Shown here: positions 25,823 through 64,000 of the stretch, piece by piece | Numbering within the stretch: position 1 is the stretch's first letter | Layout of the letters: every line of letters begins with the position of its first letter | Assembly (NCBI GenBank): GCA_043803685.1 | Contig: JAZDJU010000040.1 | Span: forward strand, 23,997 to 87,996 | Direction of reading: 5' to 3' | DNA from: Candidatus Omnitrophota bacterium | Lineage (GTDB): Bacteria; Omnitrophota; Omnitrophia; Omnitrophales; Aquincolibacteriaceae | Length of the DNA stretch: 64,000 bases | Position numbers and translations under genes: made by a program | Notes under the pieces: model-generated | The model's input: the letters and a program-made list of their open reading frames with translations, nothing else | The model's database searches: none | What the model was told of the DNA's origin: nothing

Positions 25823-25931
25823 TGCCCGGTGGTGAAATGGTATCACACTGCCCTTTTCCGCCTGAGGCGGATTCGTCCGCGAGGCGAATCCCCCGATGGA
25901 CGGATTCGCCTCTGGCGAAGGAGGCAAGATT
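25823..25931 (+). pseudogene. 5' part of a split tRNA-Gln (acceptor 5' strand, D arm, anticodon arm with 63-nt insert)
   Basis: TGCCCGG TG GTGA AATGGTA TCAC A CTGCC CTTT [63 nt, 25857-25919] GGA GGCAA GATT; no T arm follows. Confidence 0.85.
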
Positions 25932-25936
25932 TTTAA

Positions 25937-26173
25937 ATGTGGGTCTATGTTTTGGAAAGTCAAAAAGACAACCGTCATTACGTTGGCAGCGGTGAAGACG
26001 TCGAAGAAAGATTGCGGCGGCACAATTTAGGCGATTATCGCTATACTAAGGGTCATCGTCCGTGGATTGCGATTTACCGGGAGTTTTGCAAGTCTCGCTC
26101 GAAGGCTGTTAAGCGCGAACGGTTTTTGAAGTCAGGTGTCGGGCGAAAGTATTTGAAAACAGTTTTACAGTAG
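25937..26173 (+). CDS. Small GIY-YIG endonuclease (UPF0213/SLX1-like)
   Basis: WVYVLES..HYVGS..RLRRHN..YTK..RPW..AVKRERFLKSG. Confidence 0.9.
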   Translation: MWVYVLESQKDNRHYVGSGEDVEERLRRHNLGDYRYTKGHRPWIAIYREFCKSRSKAVKRERFLKSGVGRKYLKTVLQ

Positions 26174-26186
26174 CTTGATCAGTTAG

Positions 26187-26257
26187 TGCCCCGTGGTGAA
26201 ATGGTATCACACTGCCCTTTGGAGGCAAGGTTCCTGGTTCGAGCCCAGGCGGGGCAG
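26187..26257 (+). tRNA. tRNA-Gln (anticodon TTG), intact, CCA not encoded
   Basis: Acceptor TGCCCCG/CGGGGCA, D stem GTGA/TCAC, anticodon loop CTTTGGA, T arm CCTGG TTCGAGC CCAGG. Confidence 0.93.
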
Positions 26258-26267
26258 ATTTGAGCAT

Positions 26268-26780
26268 ATGATGGAAAAATTAATGATAGAAATATTAGAA
26301 AAGTTTCAAGGCGCCTTTTTAGTTTTACTGAGCTCTCTGTTGAGTTTCCTGTTTGCGTTATGGGCATTCAATCATCAGGAAGCGAGAAGAGAAGGAAAAA
26401 ACGAAAAAGATGTTTTAAAGAATTTTCTTAGCGAGATTAAATTAAATGAAATTCGTTGTGGAATGATGGTCGATTCCGAATCATTTAATTTATTCGATAT
26501 CGATGTTCTTAACAGGTTTAAGAATAGCGCGCAATTTTTGAGCAAAGCCATTGCCAAATATGTAATTTTCATTGGACTCGTTAATAATAGCGTTGCTGAT
26601 TTTTTGGATTTCGAGCGATTTTATACTGGTGATGCAAAAAACGGGACTCAAGAAAACGAGAAAGCGTCGAATTCTAAAAGAATCAGACTGCTTGAAAGCC
26701 TGAAAAGTTTCCAAGAAACTTTGGCTATGGCTAAGGCTGATGTCGCGGCTATTTTAGAAAAGGGTAAGATGGGTAAATAA
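26268..26780 (+). CDS. Hypothetical AT-rich protein with N-terminal TM helix
   Basis: ORF fills the gap between intact tRNA and right repeat; start placed after the tRNA. Confidence 0.6.
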   Translation: MMEKLMIEILEKFQGAFLVLLSSLLSFLFALWAFNHQEARREGKNEKDVLKNFLSEIKLNEIRCGMMVDSESFNLFDIDVLNRFKNSAQFLSKAIAKYVIFIGLVNNSVADFLDFERFYTGDAKNGTQENEKASNSKRIRLLESLKSFQETLAMAKADVAAILEKGKMGK

Positions 26781-26782
26781 TT

Positions 26783-26892
26783 ACTGCCCTTTTCCGCCTG
26801 AGGCGGATTCGTCCGCGAGGCGAATCCCCCGATGGACGGATTCGCCTCTGGCGAAGGAGACAAGATTCCTGGTTCGAGTCCAGGCCGGGCAG
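26783..26892 (+). pseudogene. 3' part of split tRNA-Gln (anticodon arm with same 63-nt insert, T arm, acceptor 3' strand)
   Basis: A CTGCC CTTT [63 nt, 26793-26855] GGA GACAA GATT CCTGG TTCGAGT CCAGG CCGGGCA G; CCGGGCA pairs with TGCCCGG at 25823. Confidence 0.85.
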
Positions 26893-53764: not shown

Positions 53765-55158
53765 AAGTAGCTATAGCCTCCCACCGATTCGTTCTGTTTC
53801 TTTTCCAACAGGGCATTGACCAGACGGTCGAAAAGTTGTTGTGTGCCGCGATACCCGAGATGCGCGATACGTTGGGCGCCAAAGCGGTCGTGGACCGGAA
53901 ATCCGACGCGCACGAGCGGCACCGCTAGTTTCCGCGCCAGACCGGAGGCCTTACTGCTTCCAAGGATCAGGTCCGGTTTCAATTCTGTGGCTGCGGCTTC
54001 CACCCGTGCGAAATCGGCATCCGCCAGCACCTGGATCTGCTTGAGATCCAGGCCCATTTCAGTCAGTGCGGTCTTCAAGTGAAATTCGTGTCCCCCGGCG
54101 GCCACGAGCACGGGCTTCGCGCCGATCTCGGCGAGCCAGCCCGCCAAGGCCACCGCAAGATCGTCCTCGGCAATGATCGCGACGCGTTGTCCGAAGACGT
54201 ATTTGTGTCCATCTGCGTAGGCATCGACAAGCCGGCCGCGTTCGCGGAGGACGGGTTCCGGAATAGCGTTTCCGGAGCATCGTTTCAATGTCTGACACAG
54301 AGTGTCAGAAGCATCGATGCCGATCGGCGATCCTGAGAACAAGGCCGGCACGGCGAGCTTTTCCGCGAGATAAGCTGCGGCGGAGGGGTGGTGTGCCGCA
54401 ATGCGCCCGAACGCGAGAGAGGCTTGCGCGGACCCCGTGCGGGCGATGTCGGCGATCGTGGTGCCGCCCGCGGGGATACGGTGGAATTCGCTCCACGATT
54501 CGCCATCCAACGTGTCGGAATAATCCGGAAGCATGATGATCTCGATCGCGAAAGCCGACGCCAGTTCCTTGAGGTACCGGAGATCCTCCGGCGAAACAAT
54601 GCCGGGGAACAGGTTGAGATGCGCGCCCGCCGGTTCCTTTTTGGCGAGCGCCACGACCGTTTCGCGCACGGCGGCATGGAAGCCGTCCACATAGGTGCCG
54701 GTATAACTCGGCGTAGAGACAGGAACGATCGGCGGATCGCCCGGCTTGGCATTTTGGATGAATTCACACAGGATACGCTTCACATCATCGCCGATCGTTT
54801 CGGTGAGGCAGGTGGTGGCGACGCCGATCAATTGAGGCGCGTATTGGCGGATGACGTTGCGTAATCCTTCCTGGAGATTCTCGCCGCCGCCAAAGATCGC
54901 GCTGTGCTCTGAAAAATTGGAGGATGCGATGTCGACCGGTTCGCGGAAGTGGCTGATCAGATAACGTCGCATATAGGTGGAACAGCCTTGCGACCCATGG
55001 ACCAGGGGAACTGCTCCGTGGATACCCCGGAAGGCCAGACAAGCGCCAAGCGGAGTGCAGAGCTTGCAGGTATTTTGCGCCGCCGAACGAACGGGTTTAT
55101 TCGCGGCGTCCATTTTGACTGGGAGTTTCGGGTGTGCCGGAGTCTGGAAGCTGATCAT
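53761..55158 (-). CDS. nifN: Nitrogenase cofactor scaffold subunit NifN
   Basis: CKLCTPLGA, HGSQGCSTY..HFREP, TTCLTETIGDD. Confidence 0.92.
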   Translation of the reverse strand: MISFQTPAHPKLPVKMDAANKPVRSAAQNTCKLCTPLGACLAFRGIHGAVPLVHGSQGCSTYMRRYLISHFREPVDIASSNFSEHSAIFGGGENLQEGLRNVIRQYAPQLIGVATTCLTETIGDDVKRILCEFIQNAKPGDPPIVPVSTPSYTGTYVDGFHAAVRETVVALAKKEPAGAHLNLFPGIVSPEDLRYLKELASAFAIEIIMLPDYSDTLDGESWSEFHRIPAGGTTIADIARTGSAQASLAFGRIAAHHPSAAAYLAEKLAVPALFSGSPIGIDASDTLCQTLKRCSGNAIPEPVLRERGRLVDAYADGHKYVFGQRVAIIAEDDLAVALAGWLAEIGAKPVLVAAGGHEFHLKTALTEMGLDLKQIQVLADADFARVEAAATELKPDLILGSSKASGLARKLAVPLVRVGFPVHDRFGAQRIAHLGYRGTQQLFDRLVNALLEKKQNESVGGYSYL

Positions 55159-56549
55159 AGAAGTCCTCCATGCCGGGCAGGCGCGAAACGCCACACCGGA
55201 CTCATGCAGGTGGCATGCGCTTCTTTCGCGAAATTCAGCATGCCGGCGAAACCCGCCAGCGCGATCTTGCGTTCGTGGTTGTGGTCGCAGAAACCCACGC
55301 CGAGTTTGTAGGCGATGGGACGCTCCTTCACGCCGCCGATGAACAGGTCCACCTTTTTCTCGCGAATGAACTGCGCCAGTTCGACCGGGTTGGAGTCGTC
55401 GACGATGATCGTGCCGGGGTCGCACAATTCCTTGAGAGAATCGTAATCTTCGCGGTTTCCGGTTTGCGTGCCGACGACGACGGTTTGCATGCCCAGGAGC
55501 CGCAAGGCGCGCACGAGCGAGAAAGCCTTGAACGCGCCCCCCACGTAGATCGCAGCGCGTTTGCCCTGAAGATCTTGCTTCAGAATGCGCAGCTGCGGAT
55601 CTACATCGGTGATCTCAGACCGGATCAATTCCTGCGTGCGGGTCAGGAGCTCGCGATCGCCAAAAAAATCCGCGGTCTCATAAAGCGCTTTGGCCGTGTC
55701 TTCCAGACCGAACCAGGAAACTCGTTTGAAAGGAATGCCGTATTTTTCCTGATAGAGTTGCGCCAGCCGCGTCATCGAGCCGGAGCATTGCACCAGATTG
55801 AGCTGCGCGCCGTGGGAACGGCGGACGTCATCCACGCGGCCATCTCCTGTGAGAGTAGAGACCACCGTGATGCCCATCTGATCAAAATATTTTTTCAGGA
55901 TCCACGTCTCGCCGCCGATGTTGAACTCCCCGAGAAGATTGATCCGGAAGCGGCCTTCACTCGCGGCCGGGAGGGTGCCGACAATCGTGAATAAGGCCTC
56001 GCAGGCGGCGCGGTAGCCGTCTTTCTTGGTGCCCTTGAATCCCTCGGACTGAACGGGGAGCACCGGAATTCCGTTTTCCTGAGCCACACGGCGGCAGACG
56101 GCCTCCACATCATCGCCGATCAAGCCGACGATGCAGGTGGAATAGACAAAGGCCGCCTTCGGCTGGTGGGCCGCGATCAGTTCCGTCAATGCCGCGTAGA
56201 GTTTCTTTTCGCCACCATAAATGACTTCGGTCTCACGCAGGTCGGTGGAGAAGCTATTGCGATAAAGCTGTGAGCCGGAGGATTGCGCGCCCCGGATATC
56301 CCACGTGTAGGCGGCGCAACCGATGGGACCGTGCACCAGGTGAAGCGCGTCGGCGATAGGGTAGAGCACCACGCGCGCGCCGCAAAAAACGCAGGCGCGT
56401 TGGCTGACCGATCCCGCGAGACTTTTCTTTTCACAGGCGAGCTCGTGCTCAGTTTCGCCTTTCCGGAAGATCTGTCCTTGGCGCTCAGTCAGGATCGCGG
56501 GCGTTATCCCACTCTTCCGGCACCCCAAGGCAGTCTCTGGCGTAGGCAT
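55155..56549 (-). CDS. nifE: Nitrogenase cofactor scaffold subunit NifE
   Basis: SQRACVFCGA, HGPIGCAAYTWD, STCIVGLIGDD, VQCSGS. Confidence 0.94.
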   Translation of the reverse strand: MPTPETALGCRKSGITPAILTERQGQIFRKGETEHELACEKKSLAGSVSQRACVFCGARVVLYPIADALHLVHGPIGCAAYTWDIRGAQSSGSQLYRNSFSTDLRETEVIYGGEKKLYAALTELIAAHQPKAAFVYSTCIVGLIGDDVEAVCRRVAQENGIPVLPVQSEGFKGTKKDGYRAACEALFTIVGTLPAASEGRFRINLLGEFNIGGETWILKKYFDQMGITVVSTLTGDGRVDDVRRSHGAQLNLVQCSGSMTRLAQLYQEKYGIPFKRVSWFGLEDTAKALYETADFFGDRELLTRTQELIRSEITDVDPQLRILKQDLQGKRAAIYVGGAFKAFSLVRALRLLGMQTVVVGTQTGNREDYDSLKELCDPGTIIVDDSNPVELAQFIREKKVDLFIGGVKERPIAYKLGVGFCDHNHERKIALAGFAGMLNFAKEAHATCMSPVWRFAPARHGGLL

Positions 56550-57928
56550 CAGAGCACCAGTTCAAAGCCTTCTTCGGGCGTGTCCCGGTCTTTGCGGTCC
56601 AGGATCGCGTCGAGGATCTTTTCCAGCAATCTCAAGCCGCCGCGATAACCCACCGTCGGAAAATCGGCGTGCCCGACGCGGTCCATGATCGGGAAACCGT
56701 GGCGAACGAGGGGAATATCCTCGTCGCGCGCGATGTACTTCCCGTAGGTATTGCCGATGAGCAGGTCCACCTTTTCGTTCTTGATCCACTGATGGAGCAA
56801 AAACATATCGGCGCAGGAACCGCTCTTGAACTTCGCTTCCGGGATGGGCGCGAGGAATTCTGCCATGCGCTTGTCGAACTTGTTGCCTCCGGTGCCGGAG
56901 ACGACATACACCGGGCGCATATCAAGACTGATGAGGAACTCGCAAAGTCCTTCCAGTTGATCCGGGTCTCCCCAGAGAGCGACGCGCTTGCCATAAAGGT
57001 ACTGATGCATATTGATGATCATGTCGATCAAGCGGCCCCGTTCTTCCGTGATACTTTCCGGAACGGAGACACCGCCGAGACGGCGCAGCGTATCGAGAAA
57101 GCGGTCCGTCGCATGCAGTCCGATGGGCAGCGTGAGTGATTCGCAGGGTACGCCGCACTTTTTGTCGAGTTCTTCTGCCGCGGCGTTGGAGGCGACCGGG
57201 CCGAGAGCCAACGTGGCGAGGCTGTCGCCCGTCGTTTGCAACTCCTCGATCGTCACGCCCCCTTTGGGGTACATATGAAAGTGTCCGGTTTGGGGTGTGT
57301 CGAGGACATTCGATGTGTCCGGGAAAAGAACGATCTTTACGCCCAAAGCGGCCGCGAGACGTTTGATTTCGCGCATGTCAGAAGGTTCGACCCAACCCGG
57401 GATGATGTTGATCTGGTTCTTCTGGGCGCCGGTATGGGCGGCAAAATAGCTGACCAGACTTTTGGCCATGCCCGCGAAGCCTGTCACATGCGAGCCTTGA
57501 TAACTGGGCGTATTGACGTGAATGACATGACGGCCCTCCGGGATCTTACCTTCTTCCTTGGCTTTCTGGATGATCTGCGGCAGATCGTCGCCGATGGTTT
57601 CGGACAGACACGTGGTGTGCACCGCGATCACGCGCGGGTTATAAACGGTAAAGATCGTCTGGATCGCTTGGAGCATATTGGCCTGTCCGCCGAACACGGA
57701 GGCTCCCTCGGTGAAGGAGCTCGAGGCCCCCATGACCGGTTCTTTGTAGTGACGTGTGAGCGTGCTGCGGTGATAAGAACAGCAACCTTGGGAACCGTGG
57801 CTGTGCGGTAGGCAGTCGCGCAAACCGAGCGCGGCGTACATCGCGCCTATCGGCTGGCACGCTTTGGCCGGGTTGATGGTGAGCGCCTCTCGTGGCTTGA
57901 TCTCTTTGGGTGTATGTCTTAGTAACAT
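56549..57928 (-). CDS. nifK: Nitrogenase MoFe protein beta chain
   Basis: INPAKACQPIGA, HGSQGCCSY, TTCLSETIGDD, GFPIMDR; short (group II) N-terminus. Confidence 0.96.
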   Translation of the reverse strand: MLLRHTPKEIKPREALTINPAKACQPIGAMYAALGLRDCLPHSHGSQGCCSYHRSTLTRHYKEPVMGASSSFTEGASVFGGQANMLQAIQTIFTVYNPRVIAVHTTCLSETIGDDLPQIIQKAKEEGKIPEGRHVIHVNTPSYQGSHVTGFAGMAKSLVSYFAAHTGAQKNQINIIPGWVEPSDMREIKRLAAALGVKIVLFPDTSNVLDTPQTGHFHMYPKGGVTIEELQTTGDSLATLALGPVASNAAAEELDKKCGVPCESLTLPIGLHATDRFLDTLRRLGGVSVPESITEERGRLIDMIINMHQYLYGKRVALWGDPDQLEGLCEFLISLDMRPVYVVSGTGGNKFDKRMAEFLAPIPEAKFKSGSCADMFLLHQWIKNEKVDLLIGNTYGKYIARDEDIPLVRHGFPIMDRVGHADFPTVGYRGGLRLLEKILDAILDRKDRDTPEEGFELVL

Positions 57929-58037
57929 GGCTGTTCTCCTTTTCTGGTACAGCTTTAGGATTGAAATTGTCCGCAATTTCAATCTGTTCTATGTCCTGTA
58001 CCGTTTACCTAAAAAATCAAAACTGAAACGGTGCTGC

Positions 58038-59666
58038 TCAGTTGGCAAACCTTGCCGTTAATTCCGGATGTGCCTGCCACGGAGCTTTGACGTGTTTCCA
58101 GATCTGTGCGTTCACCATACGGTCAATATCGCGATAAAAATTCGACGCACCGCGGAAGCCGGCGTAGGGGCCTCCGTAGTCGTAGCTGTGCAACTGCTTG
58201 CAGGGGACGCCGGATTTTTGGATCACGAACTTCTCCTTGATGCCCGCGCCGATGATGTCGGGCTTATAGAGCTCGATCAGTTTCTCGGTTTCGTGATGGC
58301 TGATGTCGTCCACCACGAGAGCTTCGGACTCCATCTGCTTCATCATGCCGTGATAATCGTTGAATTCCAGGTCCGGATTGGCGCGATACTTCGCGAGCTC
58401 CTCCTCAGTGCGGCGCGCGCGATAGCGCTTCGGGTCGGCTTCCACCGTGAGCTCCTCGATACTGCGGCTGTCCGCATCGACCTGGATGCTGGGAAGCACC
58501 TTGCGGCCCTCGTAATCGTCCCGGTGGGCGAATTCGTAGCCGGCCGCGACCGTGCGGATTCCGATCTCACCGAAGAGATCCTGATAATGGTGCGCCCGGG
58601 ACCCTCCCACGAAGAGCATCGCCGTCTTGCCTTTGCAGCGGCTGTGTACGTCTTCCATTATTTTTTCGACCGGGGGCATTTCTTCGGCGATCACCTTTTC
58701 GATCTGCTCGCTTAAGGCCTTGTCGTCGAAATATTCCCCGATCTTGCGAAGACTTTTGGCGGTCGATCTCGCTCCGATGAAATTCACCTTGAGCCAGGGG
58801 ATGCCGAATTTCGTTTTCATCATTTCAGCCATGTAGTTGATCGAACGGTGGCACATGACGCAGTTGAGGTCCGCGTAATGCGATTGAGTGAAGGCCGCGT
58901 AGGTCGTGTTGCCGCTGAAAGTGGTCACGAGGGTGATGCCGCATTTCTTGAAGATCCGTTCCAACTCGAAGGAATCACCGCCGATGTTGTACTCCCCGAG
59001 CAGGTTGATCTTGAATTTCCCGGCCACGGGCTGGTCGCTACGCCCGACGATGTTTTTAAACACCGCGTTATTAGCAATATGATGGCCGGCGGACTGAGAG
59101 ACGCCTTTGTAGCCTTCGCAGGAGCAGGCGAACACATTGCACCCCAACTTCTCGGTCATCTCACGGGCGATATTATGAATGTCGTCACCGATCAAGCCCA
59201 CGGGGCAGGTGGCGAAAATGCTGATCGCCTTGGGATGGAAAAGATCCCAGGCTTCCTGGACGGCCTGGCGAAGTTTTTTCTCGCCGCCAAAGATGATGTT
59301 CTCTTCCTGCATGTCGGTAGAAAAACAATAGACCATGAAGTTCTCGCCGTCTTTCCCGGCGTCCGTCTGATTGCGGCGTGTGAGCCAGGAGTAGTAACCG
59401 CATCCGATCGGGCCGTGCGTGATGATGACGATATCGCGTGTCGGGCCAAGCACGACGCCCTTGCAGCCGGCGTAAGTGCAACCGCGTTGGGTAATGATGC
59501 CCGGTACCGTGCGCGTGTTGACCTTGATCTCCGGAACATTGCCCTCCGCGTCGACCTGATTAACGACGATCTGCTGGGCGCGTTTGCGAGCGACCTTGGT
59601 AGGGTAGATCTTGATCAGCGCTTCTTTGGCTTTTTCGGGATCGAGATGCGGGTTTTCTGTGATCAT
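58038..59666 (-). CDS. nifD: Nitrogenase MoFe protein alpha chain (group II)
   Basis: RGCTYAGC, GPIGCGYY, ATCPVG, GVSQSAGHH, MCHRS, QLHSYDYGGPY; insertion after HRDDYEGR. Confidence 0.97.
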   Translation of the reverse strand: MITENPHLDPEKAKEALIKIYPTKVARKRAQQIVVNQVDAEGNVPEIKVNTRTVPGIITQRGCTYAGCKGVVLGPTRDIVIITHGPIGCGYYSWLTRRNQTDAGKDGENFMVYCFSTDMQEENIIFGGEKKLRQAVQEAWDLFHPKAISIFATCPVGLIGDDIHNIAREMTEKLGCNVFACSCEGYKGVSQSAGHHIANNAVFKNIVGRSDQPVAGKFKINLLGEYNIGGDSFELERIFKKCGITLVTTFSGNTTYAAFTQSHYADLNCVMCHRSINYMAEMMKTKFGIPWLKVNFIGARSTAKSLRKIGEYFDDKALSEQIEKVIAEEMPPVEKIMEDVHSRCKGKTAMLFVGGSRAHHYQDLFGEIGIRTVAAGYEFAHRDDYEGRKVLPSIQVDADSRSIEELTVEADPKRYRARRTEEELAKYRANPDLEFNDYHGMMKQMESEALVVDDISHHETEKLIELYKPDIIGAGIKEKFVIQKSGVPCKQLHSYDYGGPYAGFRGASNFYRDIDRMVNAQIWKHVKAPWQAHPELTARFAN

Positions 59667-61548: not shown

Positions 61549-62004
61549 TCAGGACAGATGAAGGCGCAGCGGGACCATGGAAGAAGGTTCAAAGCCGTGG
61601 CGACGGTAGAGACCCCGGGCGGACGCGTTGTGAGGATCCGTGAGCAAAGTGATGCGGCTAAATTTTTCGCGGCGGGCAAAAGTAATGACATGCCGCAAGA
61701 GGAGCGTTCCCAGGCCTTGTTTCCGAAAGTCCGGATGCACGATCAAATCCTCCAATAATAGTACTCTGCCGCCCTCGGCCGTGCTGATGAGGACGAGGAG
61801 ACTCACCATTCCGACGATCCTCTCCTCCCAGCGCGCTACGAAAATGTGACCCGCGCCTGGATCTTCCAGGATCAGGGCGAGAGCGCGGTGCTGTTTTTTC
61901 CTGTCCGGCTGAAAATCTTTTTCCTGAGAGAACAGCAATTCCAGAAGCTCAACGAGAGCCGGGATATCTTTAGACCCCGCGGGTCCGACGATCACACTTC
62001 TCAT
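61549..62004 (-). CDS. GNAT family N-acetyltransferase
   Basis: LLEDLIVHPDFRKQGLG, N.SARGLY..HGF; coupled to nifA stop. Confidence 0.85.
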   Translation of the reverse strand: MRSVIVGPAGSKDIPALVELLELLFSQEKDFQPDRKKQHRALALILEDPGAGHIFVARWEERIVGMVSLLVLISTAEGGRVLLLEDLIVHPDFRKQGLGTLLLRHVITFARREKFSRITLLTDPHNASARGLYRRHGFEPSSMVPLRLHLS

Positions 62005-63587
62005 GTCTTTCCTGAATTTTTCTGATTGTCTTTGAAGCGGGCAGGATCGATGGCGGAGGCATGCACTCGAAGCCGCATGGCGCGCTCCGTCAATCCCAGA
62101 GCTCTTGCGGCAGCCGCCATGTTGCCGTGATGGATCTTGAGCGCATCGGTGATCATTTCCCGTTCGAGGGCGTGCAGTGTGGCTTCCAGTTTTCCGGAGG
62201 AGGGCGCGAGCGGCAGAGGGGACTTATGCAATGAGGGCGGCAAGTGATAGCTGTGGATCACGCCATCCGTGGAAAGCAGGACCGCACGCTCGATACAATT
62301 CTCCAGTTCGCGGACGTTCCCGGGCCAGTGATGATGGGTCAGAAGATCAATGGCGGTGGTGCAAATGCGCTTGATCTGCTTCTTGCCCGCCTGGTTGTAT
62401 TTTTCGATGAAATGATCGGTCAGTTGCAGGATATCCGATTTGCGTTCGCGCAGTGGCGGAATGAAGATCGGGAAAACATTGAGCCGGTAGTAGAGGTCTT
62501 CGCGGAATTTTCCCTCTCGCATCAGGTTTTCCAGCGACCGGTTCGTGGCGGCCAGTACGTGCACGTCCACCGGGATCGTTTGACTTCCGCCGAGCCGTTC
62601 AAATTCCCGCTCCTGCAACACGCGCAGTAGTTTGATCTGGATCACGGGAGAGAGATCCCCGATCTCATCAAGAAAAATGGTGCCGCCGTGAGCCATCTCA
62701 AACCGGCCCTTCCTCGCGGACACGGCGCCCGTGAAGGAGCCTTTTTCATGCCCGAAGAGCTCGCTTTCAATGATGCTCTCAGGCAGGGCCGCGCAGTTGA
62801 CCCTGACGAACGGCTTGTTTGCGCGCGGGCTGTTGCAATGGATCGCCTCGGCGACGCGCTCTTTGCCGACGCCGCTTTCTCCGAGGATAAGGACAGTCGC
62901 TTTGCTCGGCGCCACCAGCTGGATCTGTTGCATGACCGATCGGAGGGCGTCGGAGTTTCCGATCAAATGATGGTCTTTCAGTTTGTTCAGCAGCTCTCCG
63001 TGCAGTCGTTGATTTTCCGCCTCCAGGCTCTGCACCTGTTCCTGGCTTGCCTGGCGCAGACGCACGGCTTGAGCGATCAGGGAGGCGATGATGGATAACA
63101 GGCGGATGTCTTCCTTACAGGCGAGGTCGCCTGTGAACAGTCGGTCGACACTGAGCGCGCCGATGGTCTCCTCGCCCAACCGGATGGGAACGCAGATAAA
63201 AGAGATCTCTTTTCGGTCGCGTTCAATGTCCCGGCGACGCGTTTTGGTGCGGTCCAGAAAAAGCGGTTCCTGGGATATCCGGGGAACGACCACCGGCCTT
63301 CCGGTTTTTACGACTTGGCCCGTGACTCCTTCGCCAAGTTTGTAGCGCCCGCGTGAGCGCTCCTCCGGGGACAATCCGTAGGCGGCGTCGATGGTAAGTT
63401 CGCCTGTTTCGCGATTCAGGATCGTGATCGTGCCGCGCAACATGCCCATGTGCTCGGCCATCATCTGGAGCAGGGGAGTCACCCCTTCGCTCAGGTTCAG
63501 ACTGCGATTCAGCAGTTGAGTGATCTGGAACAATAGAGAGAGTTCCTGGATCTCTCTTTGAGCGTCTTTCAGGGCCCGGATGCTCAT
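62001..63587 (-). CDS. nifA: NifA-family sigma54 activator (GAF-AAA+-HTH)
   Basis: [50 protein letters not shown] before ATG 63587. Confidence 0.88.
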
Positions 63588-63646: not shown

Positions 63647-63662
63647 AGCACAAATCGTGCCA
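63647..63662 (-). promoter_or_regulatory. Sigma54 promoter of nifA
   Basis: Minus strand TGGCAC GATTT GTGCT. Confidence 0.65.
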
Positions 63663-63770: not shown

Positions 63771-63868
63771 TCCCCTCTTTTCCGCCACAAGGCACTGGAC
63801 GGATCCGTCCTTCGGCGGAGGAAAAGAGGGGTTAGGGGAGATTTATTAAATCCCCCTTCATCCCCCTC
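63771..63868. repeat. CCCCTCTTT..AAAGAGGGG hairpin repeat interrupted by a 39-nt TCCGCC..GGCGGA element
   Basis: TCCCCTCTTT [TCCGCCACAAGGCACTGGACGGATCCGTCCTTCGGCGGA, 63781-63819] GGAAAAGAGGGG TTAGGGGAGATTT. Confidence 0.7.
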
Positions 63869-64000
63869 ATATGGATGACCGCCAGTCAAGCTTGGCAGTT
63901 GGCCTTGGATTCGAAGCAACCCGGCATGAGCCATCGAGTGCCATCAACCTCATATTCGCGTGCTGGTTAACGCATTAAGTTGAGTCCGAATGGTATAGGA

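Follow-up and report, generated by a model that had tools for sequence, protein, structure and literature searches.

Short hairpin inserts in repeats and tRNA fragments of a Candidatus Omnitrophota genome and their possible link to a minimal GIY-YIG nuclease

A 39-nt Insert in a Host Hairpin Upstream of nifA

The stretch of DNA analyzed here (the window) comprises 64,000 nt of a Candidatus Omnitrophota bacterium (GCA_043803685.1, contig JAZDJU010000040.1, positions 23,997-87,996 of the forward strand); its source genome is denoted G000, and other G and L numbers refer to the further genomes and loci that were compared. The window carries nifA, and about 195 nt upstream of the nifA ATG a REP-like host hairpin is interrupted by a 39-nt insert (Table 1), which is flanked by CCCCTCTTT at 63772-63780 and by GGAAAAGAGGGG at 63820-63831. 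An earlier note on this DNA had described the insert with the same coordinates and flanks. A search of six loci against Rfam returned only tRNA above the gathering cut-off, and at the 39-nt insert only chance-level matches. Between nifA and the insert, at 63648-63662 on the minus strand, lies a sigma-54-like -24/-12 site, identified by eye. The insert is therefore probably outside the nifA transcript. We regard this copy as a passenger that is most likely neutral. In this Omnitrophota bin, nifA is accompanied by four genes of the nitrogenase component type (PF00148; window positions 53809-59480, minus strand), and their assignment to Omnitrophota needs checking because the contamination of the bin is 6.6%.

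Table 1. Features of the window and additional monomer copies in the source genome.
Feature	Position	Strand	Basis or remarks
Dead 5' fragment of tRNA-Gln(TTG)	25823..25931	+	Interrupted at 35/36, ends about 12 nt past the insert
63-nt insert, four tandem mini-hairpin units (15, 17, 16 and 15 nt)	25857..25919	.	Same family
78-aa stand-alone GIY-YIG nuclease, candidate mobilizer	25937..26173	+	PF01541, E 2e-14
Intact tRNA-Gln(TTG)	26187..26257	+	ARAGORN
Dead 3' duplicate of tRNA-Gln	26783..26891	+	Contains second 63-nt insert (26793-26855)
nifA	62001..63587	-	TIGR01817, 529.5 bits (cut-off 528.85)
Left arm of host REP-like hairpin	63772..63780	.	Comparison with other copies
39-nt insert, inverted doublet of two bulged mini-hairpins	63781..63819	.	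Sequence, junction palindrome
Insert unit 1 (23 nt)	63781..63803		
14-nt palindrome joining units 1 and 2	63797..63810		
Insert unit 2 (16 nt)	63804..63819		
Host hairpin loop and right arm, remaining REP-like doublet to IS insertion point	63820..63867	.	Alignment with 10 other genomic copies
Right end of separate IS1111-like element	63868..64000	-	13-bp sub-terminal repeat 63871-63883; runs off contig
21-nt monomer copies	G000 C31:24685, C84:4378, C103:36565, C103:39132, C103:43625		

The uninterrupted host hairpin, CCCCTCTTTGGAAAAGAGGGG, is present in exact form once in the source genome (G000:C24:898-918), three times in G017 and twice in G006. Thus, the insertion lengthened the hairpin by 39 nt and neither duplicated nor removed target bases, which bears out the earlier claim of an insertion without duplication and supplies the empty sites in relatives that the note had proposed to look for. 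The terminal GGA precedes varied flanks in 80 metagenome copies picked for that terminus (at least 121 such stretches exist), and we therefore consider it as part of the element and not as a duplication. In the source genome, the host hairpin is filled at three places, once in reversed orientation and one base over, and 12 copies are empty; a fourth filling occupies a hairpin related to the host hairpin of the window. GNA loops are present in 3/3 filled versus 3/12 empty host hairpins of the source genome (p ~0.04, calculated by hand from few and non-independent cases), and in 5/17 empty ones of G017. A stand-alone DUF559 gene was sought as a partner of the host repeat and was not found. The region upstream of nifA has no close orthologue among 19 genomes of the same genus, and an empty allele of this very locus was found neither in these genomes nor in four public sequencing runs that contain a small share of the genome; none of the runs spans the locus, no RNA run is among those listed, and no joint skipping the insert was detected in them.

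The host repeat of the window bears two different parasites, the hairpin insert and an IS1111-like element, which has entered the doublet's second hairpin. Five copies of this element, with identical ends, 13-bp sub-terminal repeats and the start of a transposase-like ORF, were observed. Right ends lie at the ends of C10, C42, C57 and C60 of the source genome and in the window, left ends at the ends of C31, C85, C86, C114 and C117; the body is absent from the assembly, in which the element broke the contigs. Its ends have no match in the other 19 genomes of the genus.

Interrupted tRNA Fragments Beside a Small GIY-YIG Gene

Two 63-nt inserts, located 37.9 kb from the nifA copy in duplicates of tRNA-Gln, share with the 39-nt insert the termini, an internal word and the flanks CTTT and GGA, as the earlier note had recognized. 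The locus consists of a dead 5' tRNA fragment with its insert, the gene for a 78-aa GIY-YIG nuclease and the intact tRNA, in this order, and a second locus in the source genome follows an identical plan with tRNA-Lys. An AT-rich ORF (approximately 26269-26780, plus strand) without a Pfam or NCBIfam match separates the intact tRNA-Gln from the dead 3' duplicate, and in L066 an ORF of similar appearance comes after the tRNA (from about position 1578 onward). The 63-nt insert at the anticodon bond 35/36 recurs in related genomes, where the Gln 35/36 sites also read CTTT^GGA, and the 63-nt composite is found at other sites in G017 (four) and in G036.

Ten interrupted fragments, chosen after viewing, were compared base by base with their own intact tRNA, and the insertion was clean in 10/10. 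All of them end 4-12 nt past the last insert, wherever this insert is placed (9/10 to 56/57), which ties the position of the insert to the junction of the cassette. In L064 (900-1900), the arrangement of tRNA fragment, insert and GIY-YIG gene is repeated three times in tandem before the intact tRNA follows, and the last of these GIY-YIG genes has an internal stop.

Architecture of the Hairpin Units

The units of the family are hairpins of 15-30 nt with the arms TCCG(T)CC and GG(A)CGGA, including C/T and A/G variants. In the 39-nt insert, unit 2 is of the reverse-complement type of unit 1, which generates an inverted doublet without a spacer, and the internal word common to the 39-nt and the tRNA inserts corresponds to the junction of this doublet. 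Monomers, 30-nt dimers, inverted doublets, tandem arrays and nested copies were seen, among them dimers in which a purine-loop unit is followed by a pyrimidine-loop unit. Five copies of a 21-nt monomer of the family lie in the source genome, all at the identical bond of a GTCATTGCGA-type repeat (Table 1).

The minimum-energy fold predicted for the 39-mer alone is a single long hairpin; a two-hairpin fold is clear in a larger subtype of 55-62 nt (consensus fold of 12 sequences). In these 12 large doublets, the inner stems covary, with two-sided changes in 8/21 pairs, and the arms are invariant. The large subtype frequently, though not always, follows the tetranucleotide AGCT, on either strand. 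On one strand, the short units have purine triplets as loops. Because loops of this kind are stable in small DNA hairpins, their presence fits a handling of the units as single-stranded DNA.

The 14-nt junction palindrome occurs in 13 exact copies in the genome versus none in each of three base shuffles, and this count supports the earlier proposal of a family of non-coding mini-elements, as does its presence in 17/19 genomes of the genus. Looser patterns are less discriminating: a loose terminus pattern matched four times in the window, with a shuffle mean of 1.93 and 16/100 shuffles reaching four, and a strict-unit scan gave 75 matches versus 16-36 in five shuffles. Because loose terminus patterns are near chance, the copy counts reported here rest on the junction palindrome and on hand-curated copies.

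Distribution of the Family

The doublet junction is present in 17/19 genomes of the same genus, in 1/5 other genomes of the family and in 3/16 other genomes of the order, and a reversed control gave none. A related junction was detected in 65/151 genomes of the phylum Omnitrophota, with up to 42 copies; G038 has 20 junctions. The highest count of the 15-nt monomer is 94 copies (in G037), compared with 0-4 for the control. A metagenome scan revealed at least 121 stretches with the family, 80 of which were inspected, and the commonest metagenome variant occurs in none of the 151 Omnitrophota genomes, which hints that it may come from another host lineage. Viral contigs and plasmids that were searched for the family gave no match. 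Close relatives of the GIY-YIG nuclease of the window are found in Ca. Omnitrophota records. Short inserts in Patescibacteria genes may be similar.

Target Sites

The inserts occupy the gap between two adjacent target bases, without duplication or loss. Most copies reside inside other repeats or tRNA fragments, at a bond that varies little or not at all within each kind of host. The earlier note had proposed a specific targeting of CTTT^GGA, and this is not what the flanks show. CTTT^GGA surrounds 1/10 short doublets in the source genome, 0/62 distinct copies among the matches listed in relatives and 0/80 inspected metagenome copies (of at least 121 stretches), where TTT^GGA occurs once; the flank counts outside the source genome were taken by eye from predicted folds and alignments, without a logo or formal statistics. 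Nor are the flanks random, the outcome that the note had set against its own proposal, as each host repeat or tRNA position has its own constant flanks.

Its suggestion that hairpin tips are the targets holds for part of the copies. Some loops are indeed filled, but 36/80 metagenome copies are located at the stem foot of a repeat, and 14/80 in heptamer arrays; both groups are probably few events that were multiplied with their host repeats. By eye, about 29 distinct flank contexts can be distinguished among the 80 copies. One REP loop is filled at the identical bond in both orientations (L161 versus L189 and L195). In tRNAs, the anticodon bond 35/36 is filled in Gln(TTG), Arg(TCG), Ser(TGA) and Ser(CGA) tRNAs of differing sequence, further filled bonds are T-loop 56/57 and positions in the D-loop and D-stem, and tRNA-Gln is also filled at 9/10 and in the anticodon stem. 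Different inserts occur at one and the same tRNA bond. The 63-nt composite displays a weak preference for T or C followed by a pyrimidine before the bond.

The Link to a Minimal GIY-YIG Nuclease

The earlier note named the GIY-YIG nuclease as the obvious candidate mobilizer; its tie to the inserts is seen at the level of the locus, and a mobilizing role is what we deduce from it. The nucleases in question form a clade of about 80 aa, with an intact copy of the fragment's tRNA downstream of the gene and hairpin units piling up in the fragments directly upstream. Y4, Y15, G17, R25, H29 and E61 are invariant in the clade and presumably catalytic, judged by I-TevI. The 78-aa protein of the window comprises the catalytic domain only and scores 18.5 bits against TIGR01453 (cut-off 56). 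Among solved structures, UPF0213 proteins and SLX1 (PDB 1zg2, 1ywl, 7cq2) are closest to it; a fold search with the nuclease returned UPF0213 and SLX1 in the same order, but no match at E<=0.001.

A tRNA fragment with an interruption lies upstream of all seven top matches from other genera, and in six cases the interruption belongs to the mini-hairpin family. A fresh set was compiled from the 20 top-scoring GIY-YIG matches in previously unviewed genomes, from which L285 was dropped as a duplicate of L066. Within 150 nt upstream of the 19 remaining genes, a family unit was found at eight, another hairpin family in a tRNA fragment at five and neither at six; an intact tRNA follows immediately downstream in 13/19. 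When one strict pattern was applied throughout, 4/19 fresh GIY-YIG loci had an upstream unit, compared with a unit anywhere within about 3 kb at 1/31 Y1 transposase loci. None of four fused GIY-YIG domains is accompanied by a family unit, and inserts are absent at all six small GIY-YIG genes flanked by another motif. ORFs beside 4/80 metagenome copies were inspected by eye and had no GIY-YIG start motif, and at two places of the source genome (C103 and C104:13579) tRNA fragments with inserts were seen with no GIY-YIG gene adjoining.

The note's proposed check of co-occurrence succeeds at the locus level (8/19 GIY-YIG versus 1/31 Y1 loci), but it is weak at the genome level: the clade, present in 91/151 Omnitrophota genomes, occurs in 46/65 genomes with the doublet junction versus 45/86 without, numbers in which kin are non-independent and single junction matches are partly due to chance. 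Among genomes with at least six junctions, 10/11 contain the clade. G037 and G038 possess the clade, and no Y1 transposase was detected in these genomes, which are 87% and 93% complete, respectively.

Hairpin families unrelated to the one described here, including a 20-nt CCTGCC-type palindrome and CCTCCGG-type nests, also interrupt such tRNA fragments upstream of GIY-YIG genes. Loci with other hairpin families are L280, L286, L295, L296, L301, L303, L304, L088, L089 and L096. In addition, a second class of small GIY-YIG genes, which is not linked to tRNAs, shares the upstream motif CCCGTTAGAGAT (L072, L076, L078, L079, L090 and L091).

Comparison with Known Systems

No description of the family, or of a system combining a GIY-YIG nuclease, hairpins and tRNA fragments, was found in the full-text literature, which was searched mostly outside subscription journals. 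The hairpin inserts resemble REPINs but differ in their tag and in RAYT flanking. As far as the available text of the respective sources goes, REPs and REPINs are likewise short, repeated, extragenic, non-coding imperfect hairpins, with recurrent inverted doublets and higher-order clusters (PMC3116915, PMC6006769, PMC3733652). In contrast, the family described here has neither GTAG/GTGG nor an unpaired terminal CGTC foot tag, and CGTC occurs only within the stem. Its units have no spacer, do not lie beside RAYT genes (1/31 Y1 loci, non-adjacent), enter other repeats and tRNA arms, and are linked to a GIY-YIG nuclease gene. A few REP families residing inside other palindromes are described in PMC3733652, which treats CGTC repeats without a known transposase as an open question and contains no mention of GIY-YIG.

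Compared with free-standing GIY-YIG homing endonucleases, the nuclease of the window retains the catalytic residues, but a separate DNA-binding domain and a long recognition site are absent. The phage homing endonuclease SegB also belongs to the GIY-YIG class. According to the accessible part of PMC13096335, its gene lies beside tRNA genes and is linked to the tandem amplification of a tRNA segment, to be compared with the tandem units observed here. The nuclease considered here is instead chromosomal, has 78 aa with the catalytic domain only and is associated with hairpin inserts in an upstream tRNA duplicate. UPF0213 proteins and SLX1 share the minimal GIY-YIG fold, and SLX1 is structure-specific; in the literature searched, neither is tied to mobile hairpins or to tRNA cassettes. 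Elements of the IS200/IS605 type insert without target duplication. They differ from the short doublet, which lacks a fixed 5' tetra- or pentanucleotide, enters one bond in both orientations and has no TnpA link; their imperfect hairpins are a likeness, as described in the consulted sections of PMC6006769.

MITEs and Rickettsia palindromic elements are also small, non-autonomous, palindromic inserts, but MITEs measure 70-300 bp and are based on a transposase and TIRs, at least in the available sections of PMC3733652; the units here are 15-63 nt long and cause no duplication. An assignment to MITEs was rejected on account of this size and of the missing target-site duplication relative to empty alleles and intact tRNAs. 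A derivative of IS110/IS1111 was dismissed because of the 6-bp terminal arms, the many targets and the different repeat of the neighboring IS, and a tRNA intron because the inserts lie in truncated duplicates beside intact genes.

Possible Mechanism and Alternatives

With moderate confidence, we interpret the units as REPIN-like, non-autonomous hairpins that enter structured DNA at nicks, with a minimal GIY-YIG nuclease as the probable agent. The hairpin units would be mobile units handled as folded single-stranded DNA. The small, structure-selective nuclease would nick extruded stem-loops, such as tRNA arms, REP hairpins and the edges of the units themselves, and the ligase or repair machinery of the host would then join a blunt hairpin piece into the nick. 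The tRNA duplicate upstream of the nuclease gene would be struck most often, and once interrupted it may protect the cassette against renewed cutting or against a deletion between direct repeats; passive multiplication within host repeats would subsequently give rise to many copies. Nicking and joining would account for the absent duplication, for both orientations and for the repeated insertion at one bond. Against this interpretation, GIY-YIG enzymes are hydrolases that are not known to carry out strand transfer, and no movement of units was observed. The weak genome-level co-occurrence, the six fresh loci with neither kind of insert, the unrelated hairpin families in such fragments, the filled fragments with no adjoining GIY-YIG gene and the 50/80 metagenome copies outside loops also count against it. 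Only tentatively do we advance a bolder version, which seems possible rather than probable: the tRNA-resident nuclease of about 80 aa would itself excise hairpins of 15-60 nt and reinsert them at nicks in any extruded stem-loop, without HUH, DDE or recombinase chemistry, and the hairpins would parasitize other repeats and immunize the cassette.

Alternatively, an HUH transposase (RAYT/TnpA-Y1) could move REP/REPIN-type units in trans, and the GIY-YIG cassettes would merely offer harmless spare tRNA copies. Bulged hairpins, inverted doublets and insertion without duplication fit IS200/IS605-RAYT chemistry as presented in the accessible parts of PMC6006769 and PMC3116915, Y1 genes exist in the source genome and in 8/10 high-copy genomes, and the AGCT that often precedes the large subtype on either strand could be read in the same sense. 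Nevertheless, we consider this rather unlikely: the single Y1 locus with a strict unit has it about 680 nt from the matched part, the three RAYT-like Y1 genes of the source genome (L097-L099) carry short flanking inverted repeats unrelated to the units, the short doublet has neither the GTAG/GTGG tag nor a conserved target, and G037 and G038 contain no detected Y1 gene. Similarly improbable in our view is that the units move rarely or no longer, so that old insertions spread with host repeats or by gene conversion and the interruption preserves the GIY-YIG cassette by blocking direct-repeat deletion. The concentration of metagenome copies in two host contexts (36/80 and 14/80), the recurrence of the 63-nt insert at 35/36 among related genomes and the lack of polymorphism in the four small-share public runs, none spanning the locus, are in line with such passive spread. 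It is countered by the roughly 29 flank contexts, by insertions into one host that differ in orientation or by a single-base shift, by differing inserts at one tRNA bond and by the 63-nt composite at four other sites of G017, and it leaves the first insertions and the fragment ends at 4-12 nt unexplained.

Two further explanations carry little weight. That an IS110/IS1111 recombinase, for instance that of the adjoining element, inserts the units is very unlikely, even though the five-copy IS1111-like element targets the same host doublet and the IS110/IS1111 family makes no target duplication, as stated in the available text of PMC11187229. The 13-bp sub-terminal repeat is unlike the arms of the units, each such IS has a single target that is set by its guide, in contrast to units found in dozens of unrelated sequences, and the IS ends are unmatched in the other 19 genomes of the genus, 17 of which have the doublet junction. 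A sequence-specific element for CTTT^GGA, as in the earlier note, could draw on both sites of the window and on the Gln 35/36 sites of relatives, but the flank counts refute it as a general rule, the identical tRNA position is used in other sequences and tRNA-Gln is struck elsewhere too; it is the most improbable of these explanations.

Conclusions

The family offers a testable pair of enzyme and substrate, with a nuclease of 78 aa, defined hairpin donors and tRNA bonds that are known to the base. If GIY-YIG is only a bystander, what is described here would still be an apparently undescribed repeat family. If the nuclease-driven reading is true, the units would be among the smallest mobile elements described. 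Such a role of the nuclease would provide a function for the common small stand-alone GIY-YIG genes and would explain the interrupted tRNA pseudogenes in these genomes.
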